Shown here: positions 10,114 to 23,300 of the stretch, piece by piece | How positions within the stretch are numbered: the stretch's first letter is position 1 | How the letters are laid out: each line of letters starts with the position of its first letter | Assembly: GCA_963718615.1 (NCBI GenBank) | Contig: OY970368.1 | Span: 4,288,001 to 4,352,000, forward strand | Origin: an uncultured cyanobacterium | GTDB taxonomy: Bacteria > Cyanobacteriota > Cyanobacteriia > PCC-9006 > JAAUQQ01 | Direction of reading: 5' to 3' | Length of the DNA: 64,000 nt | Position numbers and translations under genes: made by a program | The notes under the pieces: generated by a model | What the model was told of the DNA's origin: nothing | What the model saw: only the letters and a program-made list of their open reading frames with translations | Database searches by the model: none

Positions 10114-12645
10114 ATGCTGGATTGTATGTATCTACCTCAAGCTCATCCTATCCCCCTAGGCCCTAGGCGTAAACTACACAGCATTTTGCTTTCAGCTCTA
10201 GGAATATCGACCCTGGTGCTGGTACTGCAACAAATGGGACTGTTTCAAAACTTGGAACAGGATTGGTTGGATCAAATGGCTCAGCTCCGCCCTGCCGAAA
10301 CCGTTGCACCGCCGATCACACTGATCACAATGACCGAAGCCGATATTGCCCAACAACAGCAGTGGCCCCTGAGCGATGCCACGCTGGCTCAATTGCTCCA
10401 ACAGATCCAACAGGCTCAACCCCGCACCATTGGCTTAAATCTCTATCGAGACATTGCCATAGAGCCCGGTTCTGAGCGTTTGCAGCAGGTCTTTCAATCA
10501 ATGCCTAACCTGATTGGGATTGAAAAACTCATTGGTAATAGTACGGGACCTGCGATCGCCCCACCCCCCCAACTCCACCAGCAACAGCAAATTGCCGCCA
10601 GCGATGTTGTCTTGGATGGCGATGGCAAAATCCGTCGCCACCTGCTCTCTTTGCGATCGCCCCAAGGCAAAACTCAACTGAGCCTGGGAGCAAGGCTAGC
10701 GGTAGACTATCTCGCCCAGCAAGGCATTGAGCAGATTCCCCTAGATCCCAAAGGCTGTACCATCCGACTGGGTCAAGCCCTGATCCAGGCCCTTAAGCCG
10801 ACCTCCGGAGGCTATGTGCGCACGGATGCTGGGGGCTATCAAATTCTGTCCAACTTTTTGCCCCAAGCCTCAATGTCTCGTCTTACGCTGAGCCAGGTGT
10901 TAGCCGGAGAAGGGACTGAGCTAATGCGCGATCGCATCGTTCTGATTGGTGCCACAGCCCCTAGTCTACAGAATCATTTTTATACCTCCAGCACCCGAAC
11001 CCCCGAGGAAGGCTGGAGCGGCCTTGAAATTCAAGCGGATTTAGCGGGGCAACTGGTGTTGGCGGCGCTGCAAGGACGGCCCCTGCTGCGAGGGTTGCCG
11101 GAGGGTTTGGAATGGGGCTGGATTTTGCTCTGGGCCGGGGTGGGGGCGATCGTGGGGGTCCAATTGCGATCGTCGAGTCGGGCGCTTTGGTTCGGGGTAC
11201 CGCTGAGTCTGCTGGGGCTTTTGGGGATTTCCTACGGGCTGTTGCTCAATGGTTGGTGGGCGATCGCGATCGCGCCAGGGTTAGCCTGCTTGGGTTCGGC
11301 CTTGATGGCTCGTCAGTTGATGCTGTGGCAACTCATTCGACAGTCGCAAGCCCAACTGGATGAATATAACCGCAGTTTTGTGACGCAATTGGCCCATGAG
11401 GTTGAGGCTCGAACTCGGCTATGGTCGCTAGAAAAACAGGATTTGGTTGAGGCCAAGGAGGCGGCTGAAACGGCTAATCAAACCAAAAGTAAATTGTTGG
11501 CGCTGATTGGTCACGAACTGCGCACGCCACTCAACTCGATTGTGGGGTATGGACAGCTCATGGCCGATGAACCGGCACTGCCGGAGCAATATCGCACCAC
11601 GGTCAACACTATTAATCACAGCAGCGAATATTTGCTCGGTCTGGTGAATGAACTATTGGACTTCTCTAAAATCGAAGCAGACCAATTGCCGCTAAATTTG
11701 AGGACAGTGCATCTTCCGAGTCTACTCAAACAATTAGAAATCCTCTTTCAGCTGCAAGCCAAACAGCGTCGCTTGCGGCTGCGTTGCTCCCTAGACAATA
11801 CGTTACCTGAATCGGTTTGGGTGGATGAAATTAAGTTGCGCCAGGTCTTGATTAATCTACTCAACAATGCTCTGAAATTTACCCAGGCCGGCCATGTGAT
11901 TTTGCGTGCCTGGGGCAATGGCAGCATGTACTTTGAAGTAGAAGATACAGGTCCCGGCATTCCCCCCGCCGAACTCAGCCAAATCTTTGAACCCTTCCAG
12001 CAGGGCCAAGCCGCTAGCCCAGCCCATAGCCGGACCGGAAACCCCCAGGGGATGGGCCTAGGACTCTGGATTACTAATTCGCTGGTCAAGTTAATGGGGG
12101 GAGAGCTGACGGTGAATAGCCAGGTAGGCCGGGGAACTAATTTTCGGGTGGTGTTGCCGCTCTATCCAGCCCCCCAGACGCCTCACCCAGAGGCCGTTCA
12201 GGACCGGGCGATCGCCTCCTCCCCCGCTGATTTTCCCCTCTATCGAGTGTTGGTTGTGGATGACGTCACCTTAAACCGCCGCCTCCTGGTGAAATTGCTC
12301 GAAGAGGTTGGGGTCGAAGTGCGGGAAGCTTGTTCTGGGGAAGAGGCGATCGCCCTGTGGCAAACCTGGCACCCTCAGTTGATTTTGATGGATATGCGCA
12401 TGCCCGGTATGGATGGCTATGAAGCGGTGCGGCAGATTCGTCTTCAAGAACCATCGGAAGCTCCGCCCGTGCCGATTTTGGCGATCACGGCCAATGTTCT
12501 GCAATCGGAGCATGAGGCGGCGCTGATGGCGGGCTGCCAAGACATGATTACGAAACCCTTCCGGCGGCAGGACGTGTTGATCAAAATTGCCAATTATTTG
12601 GACAGCCAATTGGGTGGGGTGGAAACGGACTTTCATCAGAACTAG
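10114..12645 (+). CDS. CHASE2-domain hybrid sensor histidine kinase
   Basis: CHASE2 motifs (QWPLSD, IGLNLYRD, DGKIRR), TM segments, HELRTPL, NLLNNALKFT, DTGPGI, GLGL and a C-terminal receiver MDMRMP. Confidence 0.9.
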   Translation: MLDCMYLPQAHPIPLGPRRKLHSILLSALGISTLVLVLQQMGLFQNLEQDWLDQMAQLRPAETVAPPITLITMTEADIAQQQQWPLSDATLAQLLQQIQQAQPRTIGLNLYRDIAIEPGSERLQQVFQSMPNLIGIEKLIGNSTGPAIAPPPQLHQQQQIAASDVVLDGDGKIRRHLLSLRSPQGKTQLSLGARLAVDYLAQQGIEQIPLDPKGCTIRLGQALIQALKPTSGGYVRTDAGGYQILSNFLPQASMSRLTLSQVLAGEGTELMRDRIVLIGATAPSLQNHFYTSSTRTPEEGWSGLEIQADLAGQLVLAALQGRPLLRGLPEGLEWGWILLWAGVGAIVGVQLRSSSRALWFGVPLSLLGLLGISYGLLLNGWWAIAIAPGLACLGSALMARQLMLWQLIRQSQAQLDEYNRSFVTQLAHEVEARTRLWSLEKQDLVEAKEAAETANQTKSKLLALIGHELRTPLNSIVGYGQLMADEPALPEQYRTTVNTINHSSEYLLGLVNELLDFSKIEADQLPLNLRTVHLPSLLKQLEILFQLQAKQRRLRLRCSLDNTLPESVWVDEIKLRQVLINLLNNALKFTQAGHVILRAWGNGSMYFEVEDTGPGIPPAELSQIFEPFQQGQAASPAHSRTGNPQGMGLGLWITNSLVKLMGGELTVNSQVGRGTNFRVVLPLYPAPQTPHPEAVQDRAIASSPADFPLYRVLVVDDVTLNRRLLVKLLEEVGVEVREACSGEEAIALWQTWHPQLILMDMRMPGMDGYEAVRQIRLQEPSEAPPVPILAITANVLQSEHEAALMAGCQDMITKPFRRQDVLIKIANYLDSQLGGVETDFHQN

Positions 12646-12659
12646 GCGAGTTGCGCCGG

Positions 12660-12830
12660 ATTTACCCACCGAAGCTGTTGACACTCCCCAGCCCTAAAGG
12701 GACGGGGATTCTTCTTTCATTGACGTGACTTTACCCCAATTGCCCAGAAGCAACTGACAAAGCGGTCTCATCTCCAGAAGCGTTCGGACCTACGATTCAA
12801 GTTCCCGTATCCCCTACGGTACTTAATCCC
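12660..12830 (-). ncRNA. Putative TnpB omegaRNA (reRNA) scaffold plus flank-derived guide
   Basis: Occupies the tnpB 3' end through the right-end hairpin ending in TCAA, where TnpB guide RNAs are known to be encoded. Boundaries and expression are inferred, not observed. Confidence 0.5.
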
Positions 12831-13105
12831 ACAGACAGGATGTTGAGTGCTGCATTATGGTCTCTCTCTAGCTCATAGCCACATTGACAAACATGGGTTC
12901 GAGTAGAGAGAGACTTTTTCACCATCGTCCCACAGCTTGAACAAACCTGAGAGGTGTATTGAGGCGGAACGGCAACCGTTGCCCGACCAAACACTACACC
13001 ACACCGTTCTAGCCAGACCCGGAACTGGTACCAACCGGCCTCAGAGATAGACTTCGCTAAGCAATGGTTCTTGACCATATCCTTGATTCTCAAGTCTTCG
13101 GCGAT
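12797..13105 (-). pseudogene. tnpB: tnpB 3' fragment (RuvC-II, Zn ribbon, RuvC-III)
   Basis: IAEDLRIKDMVKNHCLAKSISEAGW...TSQVCSSCG...RTHVCQCG...RDHNAALNIL. No upstream TnpB sequence in frame. Confidence 0.9.
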
Positions 13106-13355
13106 CGAGTCGTTATACGGCTGTAGAGAGCCAGTCGGGCACTACCCAGCAATGCTCCGATGTTGTGGTACAAGCCGTCTCTCCTGACAATCTCGGTTGT
13201 TTGCAGTCATTGCCCGAAAACAAGGCAACAAGTGGTGGAGCCTCGTTCCTGCATCTCTATAGGGCTCACTTCAATTTGTTACATTTTTTAACTGGGAGAG
13301 CCTTTCTAGGGCATCATTTAGACAAAGGTTTCGATTCAGGTGAACATCCTGTACC

Positions 13356-14342
13356 ATGTCCACTGCTCGTCAAGTCCTCGCTCTTTTGAAGAGCCATATA
13401 GAAGGCGAAGAACAGCAGTTTTTTACTGTTGCGATGCAGGTTGCTGCTCATGAGGCACGTCAAGGACATGGAAAAGTTGCTCAGGAAATTCGGAGTTTAG
13501 TCGATCAAGCGAAAGACCAAAGATCTCAGTTTGTCAATAAGAAAGGTGGACCAATCCCCTTAATCCAGCCGAAGGGAGATTTACTTAACCTGCTGTCTGC
13601 CCGATATTCGGATTTGCGTCTGGCAGACATGGTGCTTTCTGAGAAATTGTATGAAAGGTTGATGAGGGTTGTAACTGAACAAGCAAACTCAAACCTTCTG
13701 AAAGAGCATAATCTGAAACCTCGTCGTAAGCTGCTCTTAGTGGGAGCACCGGGAACAGGTAAATCGATGACAGCCGCAGCGATCGCTGGAGAGTTAAAGA
13801 TCCCTCTCTTTACAGTGCTGTATGAGGGACTGTTCACAAAGTTCATGGGTGAAACAGCTACTCAACTAAAGTTGATTTTTGACGCAATGTCGTCTACTCG
13901 TGGGGTTTATTTCTTTGATGAGTTTGATGCACTTGGATCGCAGCGTTCTAGCAATAACGATGTTGGTGAGATTCGACGTGTTTTAAATTCTTGTTTACAA
14001 TTTTTGGAGAATGATGATAGCGATAGTTTGATTATTGCTGCAACCAATCATCCTGACCTCTTAGACAAGGCTCTCTACAGACGCTTTGATGACGTGATTC
14101 AATACGAGCTGCCTAGCTCAGAAGTTATAAAAAAATTGATTCAATCGCGTCTTGTGGCCTTTCGATTGGACTGGAAAATTTGGGATGGCATTCTGGAAGC
14201 CGCAGCAGGTTTAAGTCAGGCTGAAATTATTCGAGCGATTACGGAAGTCGCAAAGAATACTGTTCTAGAGAGTAGGAAAACGATTTTGGAAGATGAGCTA
14301 ATTACATCAGTTGTAGAGCGTAAATTGATGACTCACTGGTAA
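13356..14342 (+). CDS. AAA-family ATPase, IetA-like partner of the adjacent S8 protease
   Basis: Walker A GAPGTGKS, Walker B FFDEFD and IAATNHPDLLDKALYRRFD. The N-terminus MQVAAHEARQGH and DVGEIRRVLNS are typical of ATPases paired with Y4bN-like proteases. Confidence 0.88.
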   Translation: MSTARQVLALLKSHIEGEEQQFFTVAMQVAAHEARQGHGKVAQEIRSLVDQAKDQRSQFVNKKGGPIPLIQPKGDLLNLLSARYSDLRLADMVLSEKLYERLMRVVTEQANSNLLKEHNLKPRRKLLLVGAPGTGKSMTAAAIAGELKIPLFTVLYEGLFTKFMGETATQLKLIFDAMSSTRGVYFFDEFDALGSQRSSNNDVGEIRRVLNSCLQFLENDDSDSLIIAATNHPDLLDKALYRRFDDVIQYELPSSEVIKKLIQSRLVAFRLDWKIWDGILEAAAGLSQAEIIRAITEVAKNTVLESRKTILEDELITSVVERKLMTHW

Positions 14343-14389
14343 ATGAGCTTATTGCTTAGAGTTGAAAAACCCATCTTTTCCTTTAATGT

Positions 14390-17005
14390 ATGTCCGAATC
14401 GCTGCGTAACTTACCCCATCTGAGTCTTCCTCATCATCCCTCTATTACAAGTCGGCAAGATTATACATATCCCAAGAAGGTAGTTGATAAACGTCCTAAC
14501 CCTGTACGAAATCGGGGAAGTCATTCTAGTAAACTTCGTTCTGATTTGGGTAATGTTTTGGCGGCTTTGGAACAGGAAAGGCAGTCATCTGAGTCCGAAG
14601 TAGATGCAGTGGGTGAACCTGGATTTTATTTAGATGTGGAGTTTAGCGCTTCTGAAAAGGACAAGATACTTCAAAGCTTAGAAAATCTTGGCTCTAAGAT
14701 TGAATTAATGTCAGTCACTGCTTCTCTGAAATTGGACATAAATTGTTATATAGTCCTAAAAATTGCGCTGTTTCTCATAGCTGATGAGGAATCTATAAGC
14801 CAAGAAAAACTATCACTCTTGACTTTGCTTCTGATTAGTCTGAAACGGCCCTACCTGGAAGCGACGCTGTTTGTTCCTGACACTAAGAAAAACTATTTTA
14901 AGGAAAAAATCACTACCTATGAACATGAGGAAACAAAAAAGGGTAAACCGAAGCATGAAGCTCTAGTTAGCCGCATAGAAGCCTTTTCCTTAGGCTTTAT
15001 TACTTCACTGTTTACCGATGAGAAGTCACTGTTTCCACAGGAGCAAAGTGTGGCGGTTTGGTGGGAGATATGGTTGAGAGGCGATCGAAAGGAGAATTTT
15101 GATACGATCTCTGAACGGCTGAATATTCGGGTTCAACCCCATTCCGTTAAATTTGTTGAACGTGAAGTGGTTTTAGCGCTGGCTAATGTTGTTCAGCTTG
15201 GACAAATTATCCGTAAGTGTGATGCGATCGCAGAACTCAGAATTGCGAAGGATCTACCATCGTTCTTTTTTGAGAATAATGAGCTTGAGCAACAGGCATG
15301 GATGAATGATTTATTGAATAGATGCGTATTTGAGCAATCTCCGAATGTCTCTGTATGTTTGTTGGATGGTGGTGTGATGAGAGTTCATCCATTGCTAGAA
15401 CATAGCCTTAACGTGGATGATATGCATAGCTATGAGCCAGCATGGGAGACTCACGATACTAGTGAAGGACATGGCACGAATATGTCTGGACTATTGATCT
15501 ATGGGGAACTATGTGAAGCTCTGGTTGGGTATCAAAAAATCGAGATTTCGCATTGCCTAGAATCAGTAAAAATACTTCCTCCTCAAGGAGAAAATGATCC
15601 TGCGCTGTATGGGTGGATCATGCAGGAAGGGATTAGCCGCGCTGAGATACAAGCTCCATGCCGAACACGGGTGATTTGTATGCCAGTAACCAGTGAGGGT
15701 TCAAATCGAGGGACGCCTTCCTCTTGGTCTGCGGCAATCGATAATATGTGCTTTGGTCGAGATAAAATCTCTGATGAATTGGTGCAAAGGTTAATAATTT
15801 TGCCAGTTGGTAATATTCGTGATGAGATCAATCGTGGGGATTATATTGCCAATAACGATAGTGCATCTGCTGAGAATCCGGCACAGTCTTGGAATGCGTT
15901 GGTCGTTGGGGCTTTTACCGAGAAGGTAAATATAGTTGATTCTAAATATCTCCATTGGCAGCCGATCGCGCCTGCTGGTGATTTATCACCTCGAAGTAGA
16001 ACGTCTTGTATCTGGGGCCGACAATGGCCTAATCGCCCGGATATCGTATTTGAAGGGGGAAATCTTGCGACGGATGGAGTTTGTGCGGGTGGGGTTTTGG
16101 ATGATTTGAGTTTGTTGACGGTTCATCACAAAGTTGGTCAGCGACTCTTTACGCTATTTAGTGATACCAGTGCAGCGACTGCTTTAGCGGGATATTTTGC
16201 AGCACAGATTCTGGTTCAAAATCCTGATTTTTGGCCGGAGACGGTGCGAGCTTTGATTGTTCACTCAGCGACTTGGACAGCGGCGATGCGAAAGTATTTT
16301 CTTGCTACACCACCACAGCAAAAGGACAAAAATATTCTGCTCAGGCGTTATGGATATGGTGTACCGAGTTTAGAAAAGGCACTTCGGAGTGCGAAGAATG
16401 ATTTGACAATGATTGTTGAAGATGGATTTCAGCCCTTTCAGAAGAAGGAAAATCAGTCCAAGGTGACAACTAAGGATATGAATCTTCATACCCTTCCCTG
16501 GCCGAAAAAGGAACTGGAATCTCTGGCTGAGAGGGATGTTGAGATGAGGGTGACACTTTCGTACTTTATCGAGTCGAATCCAGGAGAACGAGGTTGGGTT
16601 CGCCGCTATTCCTATCCTTCCTATGGGCTAAGATTTGCCACTAAAGATGCAACTGAGACACTTACAGATTTCAAGAAACGGATTACTAAGAATGCCCATG
16701 AGGAAGGGGATACAGTTTCTTTTAAAGAGGATAAAGGTTGGTTTTTAGGTACCGAATTGCGTAATAGAGGTTCCTTACATTCGGATATTTGGACGGGAAC
16801 TGCTGCTGATTTAGCTGCCAAGGATGCGATCGGTGTTTATCCAGTGGGAGGATGGTGGAAAGAGCGCCTTATACATAATCGATGGGACGAGCAGATTAGG
16901 TATGCGCTTATTGTTTCGATTCGGGTAACAGGGGAAGGGGCTGATATTTATACACCTGTTGAAACTTTGGTGAGGCAAACGCTGGCGATCGAGATTGAAA
17001 CTTAA
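14390..17005 (+). CDS. S8 family peptidase, Y4bN/IetS-like
   Basis: WWEIWLR; catalytic Asp LLDGGV, His GHGTNM and Ser DTSAAT; WPETVRALIVHSA, YGYGVP, VTLSYFIE, RGSLHSDIW and YPVGGWWK. Starts 47 bp downstream of the ATPase. Confidence 0.88.
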   Translation: MSESLRNLPHLSLPHHPSITSRQDYTYPKKVVDKRPNPVRNRGSHSSKLRSDLGNVLAALEQERQSSESEVDAVGEPGFYLDVEFSASEKDKILQSLENLGSKIELMSVTASLKLDINCYIVLKIALFLIADEESISQEKLSLLTLLLISLKRPYLEATLFVPDTKKNYFKEKITTYEHEETKKGKPKHEALVSRIEAFSLGFITSLFTDEKSLFPQEQSVAVWWEIWLRGDRKENFDTISERLNIRVQPHSVKFVEREVVLALANVVQLGQIIRKCDAIAELRIAKDLPSFFFENNELEQQAWMNDLLNRCVFEQSPNVSVCLLDGGVMRVHPLLEHSLNVDDMHSYEPAWETHDTSEGHGTNMSGLLIYGELCEALVGYQKIEISHCLESVKILPPQGENDPALYGWIMQEGISRAEIQAPCRTRVICMPVTSEGSNRGTPSSWSAAIDNMCFGRDKISDELVQRLIILPVGNIRDEINRGDYIANNDSASAENPAQSWNALVVGAFTEKVNIVDSKYLHWQPIAPAGDLSPRSRTSCIWGRQWPNRPDIVFEGGNLATDGVCAGGVLDDLSLLTVHHKVGQRLFTLFSDTSAATALAGYFAAQILVQNPDFWPETVRALIVHSATWTAAMRKYFLATPPQQKDKNILLRRYGYGVPSLEKALRSAKNDLTMIVEDGFQPFQKKENQSKVTTKDMNLHTLPWPKKELESLAERDVEMRVTLSYFIESNPGERGWVRRYSYPSYGLRFATKDATETLTDFKKRITKNAHEEGDTVSFKEDKGWFLGTELRNRGSLHSDIWTGTAADLAAKDAIGVYPVGGWWKERLIHNRWDEQIRYALIVSIRVTGEGADIYTPVETLVRQTLAIEIET

Positions 17006-17027
17006 GTGCCAGAGAGTAGATAGGCGA

Positions 17028-17093
17028 TATGGCTTCGTCAATCGCAGACAATTGCTGAATATTGGTTCTGGCTTTGAATTCTAGGACAAGCAT
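17028..17093 (-). pseudogene. tnpB: tnpB 5' fragment (first ~22 codons)
   Basis: MLVLEFKARTNIQQLSAIDEAI matches the typical N-terminus of cyanobacterial IS605-family TnpB. Similarity stops abruptly at the cargo junction. Confidence 0.75.
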
Positions 17094-17247
17094 CTATTTG
17101 TTCTAGCACGTTTATCATCAAACATATTGAGGAGAGCTATGTATGGACATTGCTCCCTTTTCGTTGCACGGATTATATCCCCATTCTTGAAAGCAGGGGT
17201 CTTACGCCGATTTCTGATAAAATCGCAGGACAATTCCTCGGGTATGG

Positions 17248-18903
17248 GTGGAGGGTGAAAGCATGTATTGGCGAAGATTTTCAACAGGGTCGCGGGGCTG
17301 GATGGGCCGCTTTGCAGGGGTCGTCATTTTGTGCGCCATGCTGGTGGTGGGGTGTCAAAGTCCCAATCCTCAGTCGGGTGCGCCTGGGGCGGGGGGAAAT
17401 TCCAGCGGAAATCCCAATCGAATTACCCTGGGAACCACTGCCAAGGTGCGGACGCTAGATCCAGCCGATTCCTACGAGATTTTGTCAGGGAATTTGCTCT
17501 ACAACTTGGGCGATCGCCTCTACACAACCGAACCCAACCAAACCACTCTAGTGCCTCAGTTGGCCACAGCGCTGCCCCAGATTAGCGAGGATGGCTTGAC
17601 CTACACCATTCCCCTGCGCGAGGGCGTGGTGTTTCATGACGGCACCCCGTTTAATGCCGAGGCCATGGCCTTTTCACTCAACCGCTTCATCCAAAATGGG
17701 GGGGACCCGGCGTCGTTGCTGGGGAATTTAGTGAACTCTGTTAATGCCACTAGCCCTACCGAATTGACCATTCAACTCAAGGCTCCCTTTGCGGCATTTC
17801 CTTCAATCTTGGCGTTTCCCGGTCTTTGCGCAGTGTCGCCCCAGTCCTACGAAATAGGTGCAGGCAAGTTCAAACCCCAGGAATTTGTCGGGACTGGACC
17901 GTACAAATTGGCGCAGTACGGTAACGACTCGATTAGGCTGGATACGAATCCGGATTATTGGGGTGAAAAACCGGCCAATGAAGGGGTTGATATTCAGATT
18001 TTTGCCAGTTCTTCCAATCTGTTCAATGCGGCTAAAACCGGTGCGGTGGATGCGGCCTACCAAAGTCTTGACCCCAATCAGGTCAAAAGTCTTCAGGAAA
18101 ACGCAGCACTGCAAACCGTTGAAAGCGAGGGCTTAGGAATTCACTATTTGAGTGTGAATGTGCGGAGTGCACCGCTGGATAAACCGGAAGTTCGGCAGGC
18201 GCTGGCGCTGTTGATTGACCGAAAATTGCTGAGCGATCGCGTGTTCCAAGGTCAGGTAGAACCGCTCTATAGTTTAGTTCCAGCCAGCGTCGAGGGTTCC
18301 AAGCCCGTGTTTGAAGCAGGGGATGGCGATGCCGATGCCGCGAAAGCCTTGCTGGAAAAAGCGGGATTTTCTGAGGCGAATCCCCTGCAACTTGACTTCT
18401 GGTATCGGTCTAATTTATCGAGTAATGTGCAAGCTGCGAATACGATTAAGGCGATCGCCGATCAAAAGCTACCGGGTTTAGTTCAGCTCAAACTTCAAGG
18501 GGTTGAATCCGCAACGGCCTATGAAAACCTAGACAAAGGAGCCTACCCTATTTTTATGCTGGACTGGACGCCAGACTACCTGGATGCCGATAGCTATTTG
18601 CAGCCCTTTATGGCCTGTGAAGAAGGCTCTGCGGCAGCAGGCTGTCAATCGGGTGAAAGTGCCTATCAAGGGTCGTTCTATTACAACGATCGGGTGAATC
18701 AACTGATTGCTCAAGAGCGCACGCTCACCGATGCCGCAGCGCGGGATAAAATCCTAATAGAACTACAGGATATCCTGGCCAAGGATGTGCCGTTTATTCC
18801 CCTGTGGAATAGCAAGGACTATCTGTTTGTCCAAAAGAATGTGCAAGGTGCAGCAATTTTACCAACTTCTCAAATTCCCTTTAAGGCCCTAAAAAAAGGG
18901 TAG
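17248..18903 (+). CDS. Peptide/nickel ABC transporter substrate-binding lipoprotein (family 5, DppA/OppA-like); start may be ATG 17263
   Basis: Lipobox LVVGC, plus TLDPA, FHDGTPFNAEA, GTGPY and VRQAL. Confidence 0.9.
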   Translation: MEGESMYWRRFSTGSRGWMGRFAGVVILCAMLVVGCQSPNPQSGAPGAGGNSSGNPNRITLGTTAKVRTLDPADSYEILSGNLLYNLGDRLYTTEPNQTTLVPQLATALPQISEDGLTYTIPLREGVVFHDGTPFNAEAMAFSLNRFIQNGGDPASLLGNLVNSVNATSPTELTIQLKAPFAAFPSILAFPGLCAVSPQSYEIGAGKFKPQEFVGTGPYKLAQYGNDSIRLDTNPDYWGEKPANEGVDIQIFASSSNLFNAAKTGAVDAAYQSLDPNQVKSLQENAALQTVESEGLGIHYLSVNVRSAPLDKPEVRQALALLIDRKLLSDRVFQGQVEPLYSLVPASVEGSKPVFEAGDGDADAAKALLEKAGFSEANPLQLDFWYRSNLSSNVQAANTIKAIADQKLPGLVQLKLQGVESATAYENLDKGAYPIFMLDWTPDYLDADSYLQPFMACEEGSAAAGCQSGESAYQGSFYYNDRVNQLIAQERTLTDAAARDKILIELQDILAKDVPFIPLWNSKDYLFVQKNVQGAAILPTSQIPFKALKKG

Positions 18904-18999
18904 ATTGAATCTTCTGTCAACCAAAACCCACCCTCTAAAAGCCACCAACCAAAACTCTCTCCCACAGACGTTTTTATCAATCCGTTTCTACCCAAATCT

Positions 19000-20025
19000 A
19001 TGGCACGTTCTGGCTCCCTAAAATACTACATTACGGTGCGCTGCTTACTCGCCCCTTTAATGATTTGGACAGCAACAACGATTGTGTTTCTGCTATTGCG
19101 GGTGATTGGCGGTGATCCGGTGGAGGCTCGGCTCGGTCCCAAAGTTCCCCCGGCTATTAAGGAGCAAATGCGGGAACAAATGGGGCTGACGGGGCCACTT
19201 TGGCAGCAGTATTTGGATTATATTGGCAAGCTTTTTCGGTTTGATTTGGGCACTTCCATGGAAACCCAAGGGCTGAAAGTCAATGACATTATTCAAAGCT
19301 TTTTCCCGGCCACGGTAGAGTTGGCAGTTGTGAGTTTGGCGATCGCCTTTCTCATCGGTCTGGCGATCGGTTCTCTCTCGGCCTCAAAACCCAATAGCGG
19401 CTGGGATTTGTTTGGACGATTGTTTGGCATCATCACCTATGCCATTCCGCCCTTTTGGGCCGGGATGCTCATGCAATTAATCTTTGCGGTGCAGCTCCAG
19501 TGGTTTCCCATTGGCACCCGATTTCCGATTGATTTGGATCCACCAACATCGATTACAGGTCTTTATACCCTCGATAGTTTACTAACCGGCAATCTTCAGC
19601 AATTTGGCGCGGCGGTGTACTATTTGTTTCTGCCCAGTGTGACGCTGGGTTTGTTGCTCAGCGGCATTTTCGAGCGGATTGTTCGGGTCAATTTACGGCA
19701 ATCCCTACAGGCCGACTATGTGGAAGCGGCGCGCGCGCGCGGAATTCGAGAACGTCGCATTCTATTTGTTCATGCCCTCAAAAACGCCATGATTCCGGTG
19801 ATTACGATTCTGGGGCTGACGCTGGCGGCGCTGCTTGGGGGGGCTTTGCTGACCGAGGTGACCTTTTCTTGGCCAGGTTTAGCCCAGCGTTTGTACCAGG
19901 CAATCTCGTCGCGAGACTACACCACGGTTCAGGGCATTATTGTATTTTTCTCGGCGATCGTCGTCATAGCCAGTATTTTAATCGACATCATTAGTGCCTA
20001 CATTGATCCCCGCATTCGCTACTAA
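19000..20025 (+). CDS. Peptide ABC transporter permease (DppB-like)
   Basis: PATVELA, EAA loop YVEAARARG, HALKNA, TEVTFSWPG and IDPRIRY. Confidence 0.9.
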   Translation: MARSGSLKYYITVRCLLAPLMIWTATTIVFLLLRVIGGDPVEARLGPKVPPAIKEQMREQMGLTGPLWQQYLDYIGKLFRFDLGTSMETQGLKVNDIIQSFFPATVELAVVSLAIAFLIGLAIGSLSASKPNSGWDLFGRLFGIITYAIPPFWAGMLMQLIFAVQLQWFPIGTRFPIDLDPPTSITGLYTLDSLLTGNLQQFGAAVYYLFLPSVTLGLLLSGIFERIVRVNLRQSLQADYVEAARARGIRERRILFVHALKNAMIPVITILGLTLAALLGGALLTEVTFSWPGLAQRLYQAISSRDYTTVQGIIVFFSAIVVIASILIDIISAYIDPRIRY

Positions 20026-20319
20026 ACCCCAAAAAAGTCTTTGGACCTTATAAGCTTTGGACCTTACAAAATGAATCCAGTATTTTTACGGAACAAATAA
20101 ATAAAGGTACGTTGAACTCTTGAGGCTGTTGTTTAAAGTTTATGCCGCAGTTTCATCCCGATAAACTTTTCATGGTTACGTAGAATTATCACGCTCCCAA
20201 GCGGCATCTCATTGAACTTCGCTCTAGAAGCGACGGAAAATTAATCCTTTAAAACTCAGCACGAGTCAGGTGCTATCTGCCTTTGTCAACGCAGGACATC
20301 TCAGGCAGGACAGTTAAAT

Positions 20320-23300
20320 ATGGTGTGGACTCATCAACGAACAGCCTCGGTTGCAATGCCATCGGGGCAGAGATTTGTGGCCGCTTTAGCTGCGGACGAT
20401 CTCCAGGGCTCTTCCTTAGAGAGTGCCTCTTCCGGATTGCGAGAAACGGTTGCCATTTTTGACCCGGCGATCGCCGATCTCGAAACCCTATTGGCTGGAA
20501 TTCGGGCCGATCGCGTCGTCATCCTAGACCCGACTCAAAATGGGCTAGATCAAATTACAGCAGCCCTTCAGGGCCTAGAAAATATCGAAAGTTTGCAGAT
20601 TTTTTCCCACGGCAGTGCAGCAGAGCTGTTGCTGGGGCAAGCCCGTTTGTCTGCCGATACGCTTGATCAGTATCGCGATCGCCTCTCTCAATGGCAAAGT
20701 GCCCTAGCGCCCGGTGCCGATTTGCTGCTCTATGGCTGTGATGTGGCAGCAACCGAGATCGGGCGGACCTTTTTGTCGGATCTGAGTCAGATCGTGGGGG
20801 CGGATGTAGCGGCCTCGACGGATTTAACCGGCGATCGCGCCCAGGGTGGAGATTGGGATCTGGAGTTTACCACGGGGGCAATTGAGTCGGCGATCGCCCT
20901 CACGGTCCAAGCCCAAGCCACCTACGCCGATGTGTTGGCGGCGGGGACTCAGTTTAACTTCGGCTCGTTTACGAACGCGACCCCGCTTCAGCGTAACGGC
21001 AATGCCTCCATCAGCGGCAGTCGTCTGCAACTGACTCCGAATCTCTCGGGACAGCGAGGCAGTGCATTTTATAATCAGGCGATCGCCCTAGATCCCAACG
21101 TCTCCTTTAGCAGTCAATTTAGCTTTGACATTGATGGGGGAACCACGGGAGCCGATGGTTTTACCTTTGTGCTGCAAAATACGCTTGCAGGTTCCCGACT
21201 CTTGGGCGGTGCGGGGGGCAGTCTTGGCTATGGGGGCAGTGGCGCAGAGAGTATCGCCATCAAGTTTGATACCTTCCAAAACGGCATTGATCCCAACAGC
21301 AACCATGTGGCGATTCTGCAAAATGGAGATGAGAATCGCTTTCTAGCGGTAAATGCCAATCCAGGGGTGGATCTCAATAGCGGTCAGGTTGTCAATGCCT
21401 GGGTGGACTATAACGGATCGAGCGATCGCCTCCAGCTTTTCCTGTCCAATGGCACCGCTAAGCCCAATAATCCGGTTTTAAATACGACGATTGATTTGTA
21501 TAGAGCCTTGGGCGATCGCGCCTACGTCGGCTTCACTGCCGCAACCGGTTGGGCACGCAACCGTCACACGATTACCCGTTGGCAATTCAACAGTAGCGAC
21601 ACCGGCAGCGGCGGCGGAACACCACCCGGAACAGGAAATGGTCTTCGAGGTGAGTATTTCGACAATATCAACTTCACCAATCCGGTCCTGACGCGAACGG
21701 ATGCCACGGTCAATTTTGATTGGGGCAACGGCTCTCCGGCGAGCAATATTGGTGCAGATACCTTTTCAGTACGCTGGACCGGTCAAGTTGAGCCCCGATA
21801 TAGCGAAACCTATCAGTTCTACACCACCTCCGACGATGGGGTACGACTGTGGGTGAATAACCAACTGGTGATCGACAACTACGTGGATCAAGCACCGACG
21901 GAGCGATCGGGCAGCATTACGCTGCAAGCGGGTCAAAAGTACGATCTGCGGCTGGAATACTACGAAAATGGCGGTGGTGCCGTTTCCCAACTGGCTTGGT
22001 CCAGTGCCAGCACGCCCAAGCAAATCATTCCTACCAGCCAGCTTTACGCGGCCAGTGGCGGGGGCGGCGGGAGCGACCCAACCTACAATGGCAATCGCTA
22101 TCGCCTAACCAATAGCCTCACTTGGGAGGAGGCCCAGGCTGCCGCTCAAGCGGTGGGTGGCAACCTAGTGACCCTCAATGACGCGGCGGAAGAAGCTTGG
22201 CTCAAACAGACGTTTGGCGGAGTCGAACAGTTTTGGATAGGCATCACCGATCGCCAAACCGAAGGCCAGTTCCGCTGGATCAGTGGCGAAGCAGTCACCT
22301 ACACCAATTGGGCACCGGGAGAGCCGAATAACTACAACGGCGACCAGGATTATGGCGTCATCAACTTTGGCTCCACCCGCCAATGGGATGACGAATCTAC
22401 CGGAGCTCGATTCCGAGGCATTATCGAAATTCCCACGACAACGCCACCTCGCAGTACGATCGCCCTGGAACAAAACATCTACAGCGTCAACGAAGCCGGG
22501 GGCGGCGTTGAGATTGGCGTAGTCCGGAGTGGCAATACAACCGGTGCAGCAACGATTATCTACCGAACAGATAATGGGACTGGGGGAACTGGGGCGATCG
22601 CCGATTCAGATTTCACCGCTGCCAACGGAACCCTCAGCTTCGCCCCTGGGGAAACGCGCAAAACCGTGCGCATTCCCATCCTCAATGATGGCCAAACGGA
22701 AGCAAATGAGACCTTTAGCTTTGTGATCGAATCCCCCGGCAATGCAGATTTGGGCACCCAGCGCACCGCCGTGATCACGATTTTGGATGACGACAATCCA
22801 GCCCTGACGGTTAACGATATCCAAGTCAATGAAAACGCCGGTAATGCGGTATTAACCCTAACGCGGGGCAACGGCGTGGGTACGGCAACGGTGCAGTATG
22901 CCACGGTCAATGAAACGGCGGTCGCCGGAAGCGACTACAGCAGCCGCACCGGCACGGTCACCTTTGCGGCGGGACAAACTAGCCAGTCCATCGCCATTCC
23001 CCTCACCAACGACAACAGCGGCGAACCCAACGAAACCTTCCGGGTCAACTTTAGTAATCCTGTCGGTATTACCTTGCCGGATCCCGATGCGAGGGTGACG
23101 ATTCTCGATGATGACCCTGGTAACTTTGTGAAGGAAGCGGTGATTGGGGGATTGAATCAGCCAACGGCGATCGCCTGGACGCCAGACAACGCCCTGCTGT
23201 TTATTCTAGAAAAATCCGGTCTGGTTAAAGTTGCTCAAAATGGCCAGGTGATTGGGACCTTTGCGGATTTACGCGATCAGGTGAATGATGTGCGCGATCG

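Follow-up and report, generated by a model that had tools for sequence, protein, structure and literature searches.

The locus lies in a window of 64,000 nucleotides, by which we mean the whole stretch of DNA analyzed in this study, between the gene of a CHASE2 hybrid sensor kinase as upstream neighbor (843 aa; 10114-12645, plus strand) and an operon for a peptide-type ABC transporter, which follows ietS and starts at 17248. The 4,539 bp from 12678 to 17216 on the minus strand are an insertion sequence (IS) of the IS200/IS605 family (IS608-like). In the direction of this strand, the element comprises a left end beginning with CAGAAATCGGCGTAAGA (17149..17216), a stub with the first 65 nt of tnpB (MLVLEFKA...; 17029..17093; 84.6% identity to rcL027 841-905), a replacement segment of 3,910 bp with cargo on the plus strand (13119..17028), a 3′ remnant of tnpB with about 100 codons from the TNB zinc-finger region (last ~320 nt; 12797..13118), and the scaffold of an omegaRNA (12678..12846), which takes in both the last part of tnpB and the right end. 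The cargo consists of ietA, encoding an AAA+ ATPase (328 aa; 13356..14342, plus strand; Pfam AAA 1.6e-28; PADLOC IetA 6.2e-71), and ietS, encoding a subtilase-family S8 peptidase (871 aa; 14390..17005, plus strand; Pfam Peptidase_S8 2.5e-55; PADLOC IetS 6.8e-26).

For the assignment of these parts, we used the genome G003 of the same family, which contains an intact element with both genes, namely a tnpB frame of 402 aa and a divergent Y1 tnpA. On the minus strand of the window, this element has three matching pieces, which are collinear and in one orientation. Its left-end piece matched at 17222..17149 with 78% identity, and its last 443 nt, covering the 3′ part of tnpB and the right end, matched at 13118..12678 with 87% identity. 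Compared with the G003 element, the tnpA segment is absent between the left end and the tnpB stub, and the central 714 bp of tnpB, measured on the intact relative, are represented by 3,910 bp, so that a replacement and not a simple insertion took place. The 3′ remnant is homologous to rcL027 1620-2062, and a 98-aa minus-strand open reading frame within it (12797-13093) gave a hit to PF07282 (E=1.5e-19), the Cas12f1-like TNB domain of TnpB; compared with the intact relative, the remnant ends prematurely at a TGA. As the original prediction had stated, tnpB is thus destroyed, with only the two terminal pieces left. A repeat search from 12600 to 17300 gave only short chance-like pairs, none of which brackets the cargo.

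The right end of IS608 terminates at TCAA. In the window, the minus-strand right end reads ...GAATCCCCGTCCCTTTAGGGCTGGGGAGTGTCAA and terminates at 12678 with GAGTGTCAA. A terminal hairpin (12707..12686), located within the omegaRNA scaffold and with a covarying stem, is followed by the terminus AGTGTCAA (12685..12678), which also forms the last bases of the scaffold. Homology to a second copy elsewhere in this genome, the sister copy (88%; 390 of 444 positions identical), stops exactly at TGTCAA (...GGGGAGTGTCAA), and homology to the G003 element (87%) stops there as well. Also, a 12-mer ending with GAGTGTCAA was detected with at most two mismatches in 33 of 43 related cyanobacterial loci, the flanks of which diverge straight after it. 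Because of this shared stop of homology and the recurrence of the 12-mer next to unrelated flanks, the right-end boundary at 12678 is firm.

The left end opens with CAGAAATCGG at 17216 on the minus strand and contains an imperfect hairpin (17199..17179), which was aligned with those of relatives. Together with the left ends of G003 and of a protein-less mini-element described below, it aligns from C(A/G)(G/A)A.ATC..., and the preceding bases are TTTTAT (window), TTTTAC (G003) and TCTTAC (mini-element). The original prediction placed TTTAT outside the left end; it is present at 17221..17217 directly 5′ of the left end, and the target motif, or target-adjacent motif (TAM), supported by comparison is the 4-nt core TTAY, here TTAT. 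In a survey of left ends, 20 of 29 fitted a pattern of target, left end, 4 nt and hairpin, with the targets TTAC (11), TTAT (5), TGAC (2), TGAT (1) and CGAT (1), frequencies that are partly imposed, since only targets of the form [TC][TG]A[CT] were admitted by the pattern. Not imposed by the pattern is that the final base of the target covaries with the base directly preceding the hairpin. The combinations in these 20 left ends are 12 C-G, seven T-A and one C-A; the window has T-A. For IS608, the available text of PMC5027513 describes such a left guide, with the target TTAC being read by AAAG at the foot of the hairpin. Two features of the IS200/IS605 family were thereby found in the window element, namely subterminal imperfect hairpins at both ends without terminal inverted repeats, and a fixed target read by the 4 nt before the left-end hairpin without target duplication. 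A third, the Y1 (HUH) transposase TnpA, is absent from the element, and the TnpA proteins encoded in the genome are 35-41% identical to the cognate one.

Uninterrupted counterparts of the site were found in the genomes G001 and G003, in which a hybrid kinase-like gene lies directly upstream of the transporter gene without an insertion. The kinase-like gene shares 42-45% amino acid identity with that of the window (residues 286-831) and the transporter gene 71-80%. Both uninterrupted sites read TTTATCAG, without target duplication, and an 18-nt block, CTGATAAAATCGCAGGAC, is common to the window, G001 and G003. With a slash marking the insertion point, the minus strand of the uninterrupted sites is ...GATTTTATCAG/... 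and that of the window is ...GATTTTAT/CAG-element-TCAA/CAGCTTCGG. Precise excision would therefore join TTTAT to CAGCTTCGG and restore TTTATCAG of both relatives, i.e., TAM plus guide, which agrees with the excised allele of TTTAT and right flank that had been predicted. The whole 4,539-bp unit (12678..17216) is one insertion. Two independent partial elements were ruled out, because the pieces are collinear, have the same orientation and bracket a single insertion point. TAM and guide thereby match the donor joint of precise excision, as in a homing system; this geometry is true of every IS200/IS605 insertion by construction and is therefore not evidence of function.

The 18-nt block (window 17214-17231, plus strand; matching sites in G001:C215 and G003:C195) lies upstream of the binding-protein gene in genomes that are otherwise about 75% identical, and it contains a -10-like sequence, GATAAAAT. 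As the target TTAT is located inside this conserved block, the element was inserted right at a probable promoter. In G003:C195 (L061), five tandem copies of GGTCTGTGATTTTC, which are absent in the window and in G001, are located between the promoter-like block and the start of the binding-protein gene.

For the RNA, a search against Rfam from 11000 to 21000 (E≤1) gave no matches, and therefore a covariance model (R1) was built from relatives, for which 20 copies with an adjacent near-full-length tnpB frame (at least 370 aa) were aligned over the 170 nt that end at the right-end boundary. The RNAalifold consensus of these copies has 33 pairs, 21 of them with compensatory changes on both sides, and consists of a terminal hairpin, a three-tier central stem and a 5-bp long-range helix joining the conserved loop GGCAU to GUGUC just before the guide. 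R1 found 53 matches in 56 sources. In their alignment, 92.4% of the cells pair versus 37-48% with the partners slid by 1-3 columns, and double changes occur at 25 of the 33 pairs; since this alignment was fitted to R1 and leans to the model, these figures are upper estimates.

The window scaffold reached 121.9 bits over R1 positions 1-170, within the range of 108-184 bits of the 20 model-building copies, while its closest relatives, the sister copy and the intact G003 copy, reached 139.5 and 136.4 bits. It keeps 31 of the 33 consensus pairs, as does the G003 copy, and the sister copy keeps 32. Owing to a C-to-G change, the middle pair of the long-range helix has become G-G; all 20 model-building copies form this pair, and among the 53 matches CG was found in 45, UG in four and another combination in two. 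Furthermore, a single T is inserted in the conserved G.AAG loop, and three changes weaken a variable hairpin, one of them creating the TGA stop. The ORF-breaking changes (TGA stop, additional T) fall inside the RNA region. The C-to-G change and the extra T may be variants of the lineage or decay; within the order (8 genomes), no intact relative of this tnpB sub-lineage closer than G003 was found. According to the model, the region can be assigned as a TnpB omegaRNA, a conserved structured RNA encoded across the 3′ end of tnpB as far as the right-end boundary, and its scaffold is near-intact, though not pristine. The retained omegaRNA locus that had been proposed from 12655 to 12830 is thus borne out with respect to the structured RNA, which runs further, to about 12846. 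The proposed covariance alignment to intact copies, now carried out, placed its score among theirs and revealed the broken pair and the 1-nt loop insertion.

The 20 bases after the right end (12677..12658, minus strand), CAGCTTCGGTGGGTAAATCC, were assigned as guide segment by their position. They occur once in the window at up to three mismatches, with 0 expected from shuffled sequences, and lie within the 3′-untranslated region of the hybrid kinase gene, the stop codon of which is at 12643-12645. If made, the RNA would carry this right flank as its guide, and the prediction that the guide is taken from the flank beyond the right end is in line with the position directly 3′ of 12678. Regarding other genomic targets, 47 further near-matches to the first 16 nt of the guide (1-3 mismatches) were found, none of them directly preceded by TTAT or TTAC, so that the guide is without a second target in the genome.

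Further remains of the same lineage were detected in the genome. The sister copy is a tnpB fragment (G000:C1:799777-800362; L002/L007) with a 182-aa frame, the omegaRNA of 139.5 bits and an intact right end. Apart from this fragment and the window remnant, coding sequence of the lineage is absent from the genome. The sister copy is 97% identical to the 402-aa tnpB frame of G003 and breaks off, beside an unrelated 418-aa ORF, at a point about 40 codons upstream of that at which the window copy ends. About 28 kb upstream of the window start lies the mini-element (G000:C1:4259910-4260359; L004/L119), which is about 450 bp long and protein-less; its left end follows CTTAC and is 90% identical to that of G003, its right end stops with GAGTGTCAA, and its omegaRNA-like region has 79.6 bits. 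This mini-element looks like a PATE. In addition, an isolated fragment of the scaffold is present at G000:C1:3245492-3245650 (L003/L120; 49.4 bits, 85% over 128 nt), which has lost the right-end hairpin and terminus.

A comparison of 300 coding positions in the tnpB remnant of the window and in the sister fragment gave 42 differences (dS 0.53, dN/dS 0.13). With this dN/dS ratio, most of the divergence arose while both genes were under selection. Going by the sequence comparison, the window copy stems from a distinct sub-lineage, and its inactivation may be recent relative to the split from the sister copy. The 170-nt RNA region has about 12 differences versus the 42 in 300 of the upstream coding remnant. 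This lower divergence could reflect continued constraint on the RNA; it would equally be expected from the double constraint on RNA and protein in a live gene.

By gene content, with ietA and ietS adjacent, the cargo qualifies as an IetAS pair. IetAS was named as toxin and antitoxin of plasmid pTiC58 in the accessible part of PMC5006074, and PADLOC lists it as an anti-phage system. Relatives of ietA (E≤1e-40) were found in 54 of 401 genomes of the class. The closest among them, with 93% amino acid identity, belongs to G112 from a different family, the DNA of which (G112:C62:324-3952; L135) matches the window at 13266-14726 (87.7%) and 14856-17007 (89.3%). The 9-kb neighborhood of the G112 genes has no similarity to the IS and no IS ends. 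When R1 was applied to 88 ietA loci (80 metagenomic and 8 genomic; 661,596 bases), no match was obtained at E≤0.1, and the right end was found in none of the 88; one metagenome contig with a 91%-identical ietA relative is too short to show the flanks. Since the G112 cassette is without IS and no searched locus has the RNA, the cassette travels independently of the IS, and the G112 match suggests that it was recently transferred horizontally by itself. The composite of left end, ietAS and right end is so far unique, as the loci searched did not contain it a second time. Either the cassette may have entered the IS here or the composite may have arrived as a unit.

The genome available for the search of cognate proteins is one contig of 6.1 Mb with completeness 100; any plasmids would lie outside this assembly. 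Twelve matches to the TNB domain were obtained, consisting of two 400-aa frames, one 432-aa frame, seven frames of 398-403 aa, most of them beside a tnpA, and the two lineage fragments in the window and the sister locus. An intact tnpB of the window lineage was not among them. When the intact G003 proteins were used for the search, identity reached no more than 37% for an intact resident TnpB (range 29-37%) and 41% for TnpA. On R1 with filters off, the RNA regions of resident elements scored 23.4, 16.9 and 11.0 bits, with the seven-locus family also put at 23-31 bits and the 432-aa tnpB copy at no more than 4.7 bits, compared with 121.9 bits for the window. The left ends of the resident elements follow CTAC/CTAA-like and TCAT-like sequences, not TTAT, the boundaries of the two-copy family being approximate. 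A TnpB cognate to the omegaRNA and a TnpA cognate to the ends are thus both absent from the genome, and as there is no cognate TnpA, the excision that homing should counteract is without an evident driver.

The seven loci (e.g., G000 C1:714281-715894, 3021142-3022754 and 4881822-4883435) represent a resident, apparently active IS605-type family with near-identical tnpB genes. Six of the seven lie beside a tnpA of the 140-aa class; their right ends stop with GAGCGTCAA and their left ends begin with CAGAAATCTC after CTAC. They are distant cousins of the window element.

Given the absence of a cognate nuclease or transposase in the genome, the locus is most likely a fossil element, with a near-intact omegaRNA as relic that nothing in this genome is able to use, rather than a working retention device. 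Direct observations are the anatomy, the RNA structure, the lack of cognate proteins and the uninterrupted sites in the relatives, whereas the order of events and the lack of activity are inferred as follows. An IS608-like element would have inserted 3′ of TTAT between the hybrid sensor kinase gene and the peptide-type ABC transporter operon. Later, the central 714 bp of tnpB would have been replaced by the horizontally acquired ietA/ietS cassette. The ends and the 170-nt scaffold have survived almost intact, the cognate TnpB to bind the RNA and the TnpA to excise the element are both absent, and oppositely oriented cargo of 3.9 kb now lies between the RNA gene and the promoter side of tnpB. 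The cassette would then be kept because the element is immobile, possibly helped by the addictive behavior reported for ietAS. An addiction effect had already been suggested alongside RNA-guided retention and fits the toxin-antitoxin pair of pTiC58, as far as described in the accessible part of PMC5006074; by analogy, addiction by ietAS itself would be the simpler reason for retention.

Some observations stand against a mere fossil. Both element ends look usable from their sequence, the scaffold is not grossly decayed, being within the range of the model copies and equal to the G003 copy in its pairs, and an intact cognate element is present in a genome of the same family. The composite could accordingly be a functional non-autonomous cargo transposon that is silent until an element with cognate TnpA and TnpB, e.g., a G003-like one, enters the cell. 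Hairpins and cleavage motifs are kept at both ends, the left-end guide base fits the TTAT target, and the same lineage has left other non-autonomous derivatives in the genome, including the ~450-bp mini-element with left and right ends. We nevertheless regard such a latent competence as unlikely, since the composite lacks a second copy, with neither RNA nor right end at the 88 ietA loci, and the closest ietAS relative has no IS ends. Moreover, the nearest intact TnpB lineage uses TTAC and has C at the position of the broken pair, and 4.5 kb is about three times the normal length of an element. That the composite would in addition be moved and homed into cargo-free copies by cognate TnpA and TnpB, supplied by horizontal transfer or by an unassembled plasmid, and thus act as an RNA-guided drive for a defense or addiction cassette, seems very improbable indeed.

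Preservation of the right end could alternatively be due to a new role of its hairpin as terminator or 3′ end of the kinase mRNA, for which we see only a very small chance. On the plus strand, the hairpin lies 33 nt after the kinase stop codon, is predicted as a G+C-rich structure of 5+3 bp and is followed by the U-rich run AUUCUUCUUUCAUU; the distance from the kinase-like gene to the next promoter region is only 30-50 nt in the relatives. Against this role, a scan for promoters and terminators from 12500 to 13500 found none of either, where chance alone would give about 0.8 of each, the fold of 80 nt does not exceed shuffled sequences in stability (z = -0.16), and the preservation of the other 130 nt of the scaffold would be left unexplained. 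The plus-strand stretch in question is 12686-12724, in which the right-end hairpin is followed by ATTCTTCTTTCATT.

According to the original prediction, the orphan omegaRNA would be transcribed, be loaded in trans by a TnpB from a resident IS, and direct cleavage of cargo-free chromosome copies, so that the ietAS element is homed in a possibly polyploid host; the lack of an intact cognate tnpB in the genome was named as a result that would refute it. We consider this proposal extremely improbable. Its donor-joint geometry is correct, the scaffold is largely intact, ten open TnpB frames (398-432 aa) exist in the genome, and the use of omegaRNAs of protein-less PATEs in trans has already been proposed in the available text of bioRxiv 10.1101/2023.03.14.532601. 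However, exactly this refuting result was obtained, the cognate tnpB being missing among the 12 TNB matches and all intact resident TnpBs being non-cognate with at most 37% identity. The scaffolds of the resident elements score far below the window on R1, their left-end contexts (CTAC-like, TCAT-like) differ, and no TnpA of the lineage (best 41%) is available to make element-free copies. The RNA itself breaks the long-range pair kept in 20 of 20 copies and has an insertion in a conserved loop. Also, a promoter-like site was absent from the scanned region, the promoter side of tnpB lies 3.9 kb away behind genes on the opposite strand, and TnpB is reported, in the accessible part of PMC10278001, to process its own mRNA into omegaRNA. 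From sequence comparison, homing by a resident, 37%-identical TnpB with the window RNA is not supported, and the retention of the cargo by a TnpB in trans was not upheld.

Had the proposal been true, TnpB homing could fix cargo unrelated to the transposon in polyploid bacteria, a natural gene drive for immunity genes. The evidence points to a less unusual history, in which an insertion sequence became inactive where it stood and ietAS, acquired horizontally, came to lie between its ends. The locus is a reminder that a guide matching the empty site cannot by itself indicate function. Beyond that, its analysis yielded an omegaRNA consensus of 170 nt, not matched by Rfam, in which a long-range helix lies beside the guide, and a boundary-resolved IS608-like family in cyanobacteria with the target TTAC/TTAT, the right end TCAA and covariation between left guide and target. 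In a search of the main texts of the literature, we found no paper on a defense cassette between IS605-family ends or on an orphan omegaRNA retaining cargo.

Homing at the donor joint, where the TAM abuts the right-end flank and cutting by TnpB drives recombinational restoration, is established according to the available text of bioRxiv 10.1101/2023.03.14.532601. Like the IS608/ISDra2-type elements treated there (Meers et al.), the window element has subterminal imperfect hairpins, was inserted 3′ of a TTAC-like tetranucleotide without duplication, has an omegaRNA that extends from within tnpB, at its 3′ end, to the right end, and has a donor joint made of TAM and right-end flank. Unlike in them, the interior of tnpB has been lost and tnpA is not present, nor does the genome contain a cognate copy of one or the other; both enzymes of the homing pathway are therefore missing, and what is left are the RNA gene and the ends. 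With PATEs, which as far as described are protein-less and often keep an omegaRNA, it shares the non-autonomous combination of left end, right end and omegaRNA that needs proteins in trans, but in contrast to these short and gene-less elements it carries a 3.9-kb two-gene cassette and tnpB stubs. The cargo resembles IetAS of pTiC58, as far as that system is described, in gene order and domain content, and differs in that the pair of the window is chromosomal and lies inside the remains of an insertion sequence. Measured against these systems, the locus is most likely a well-resolved example of a decayed IS200/IS605 element with a relic omegaRNA.
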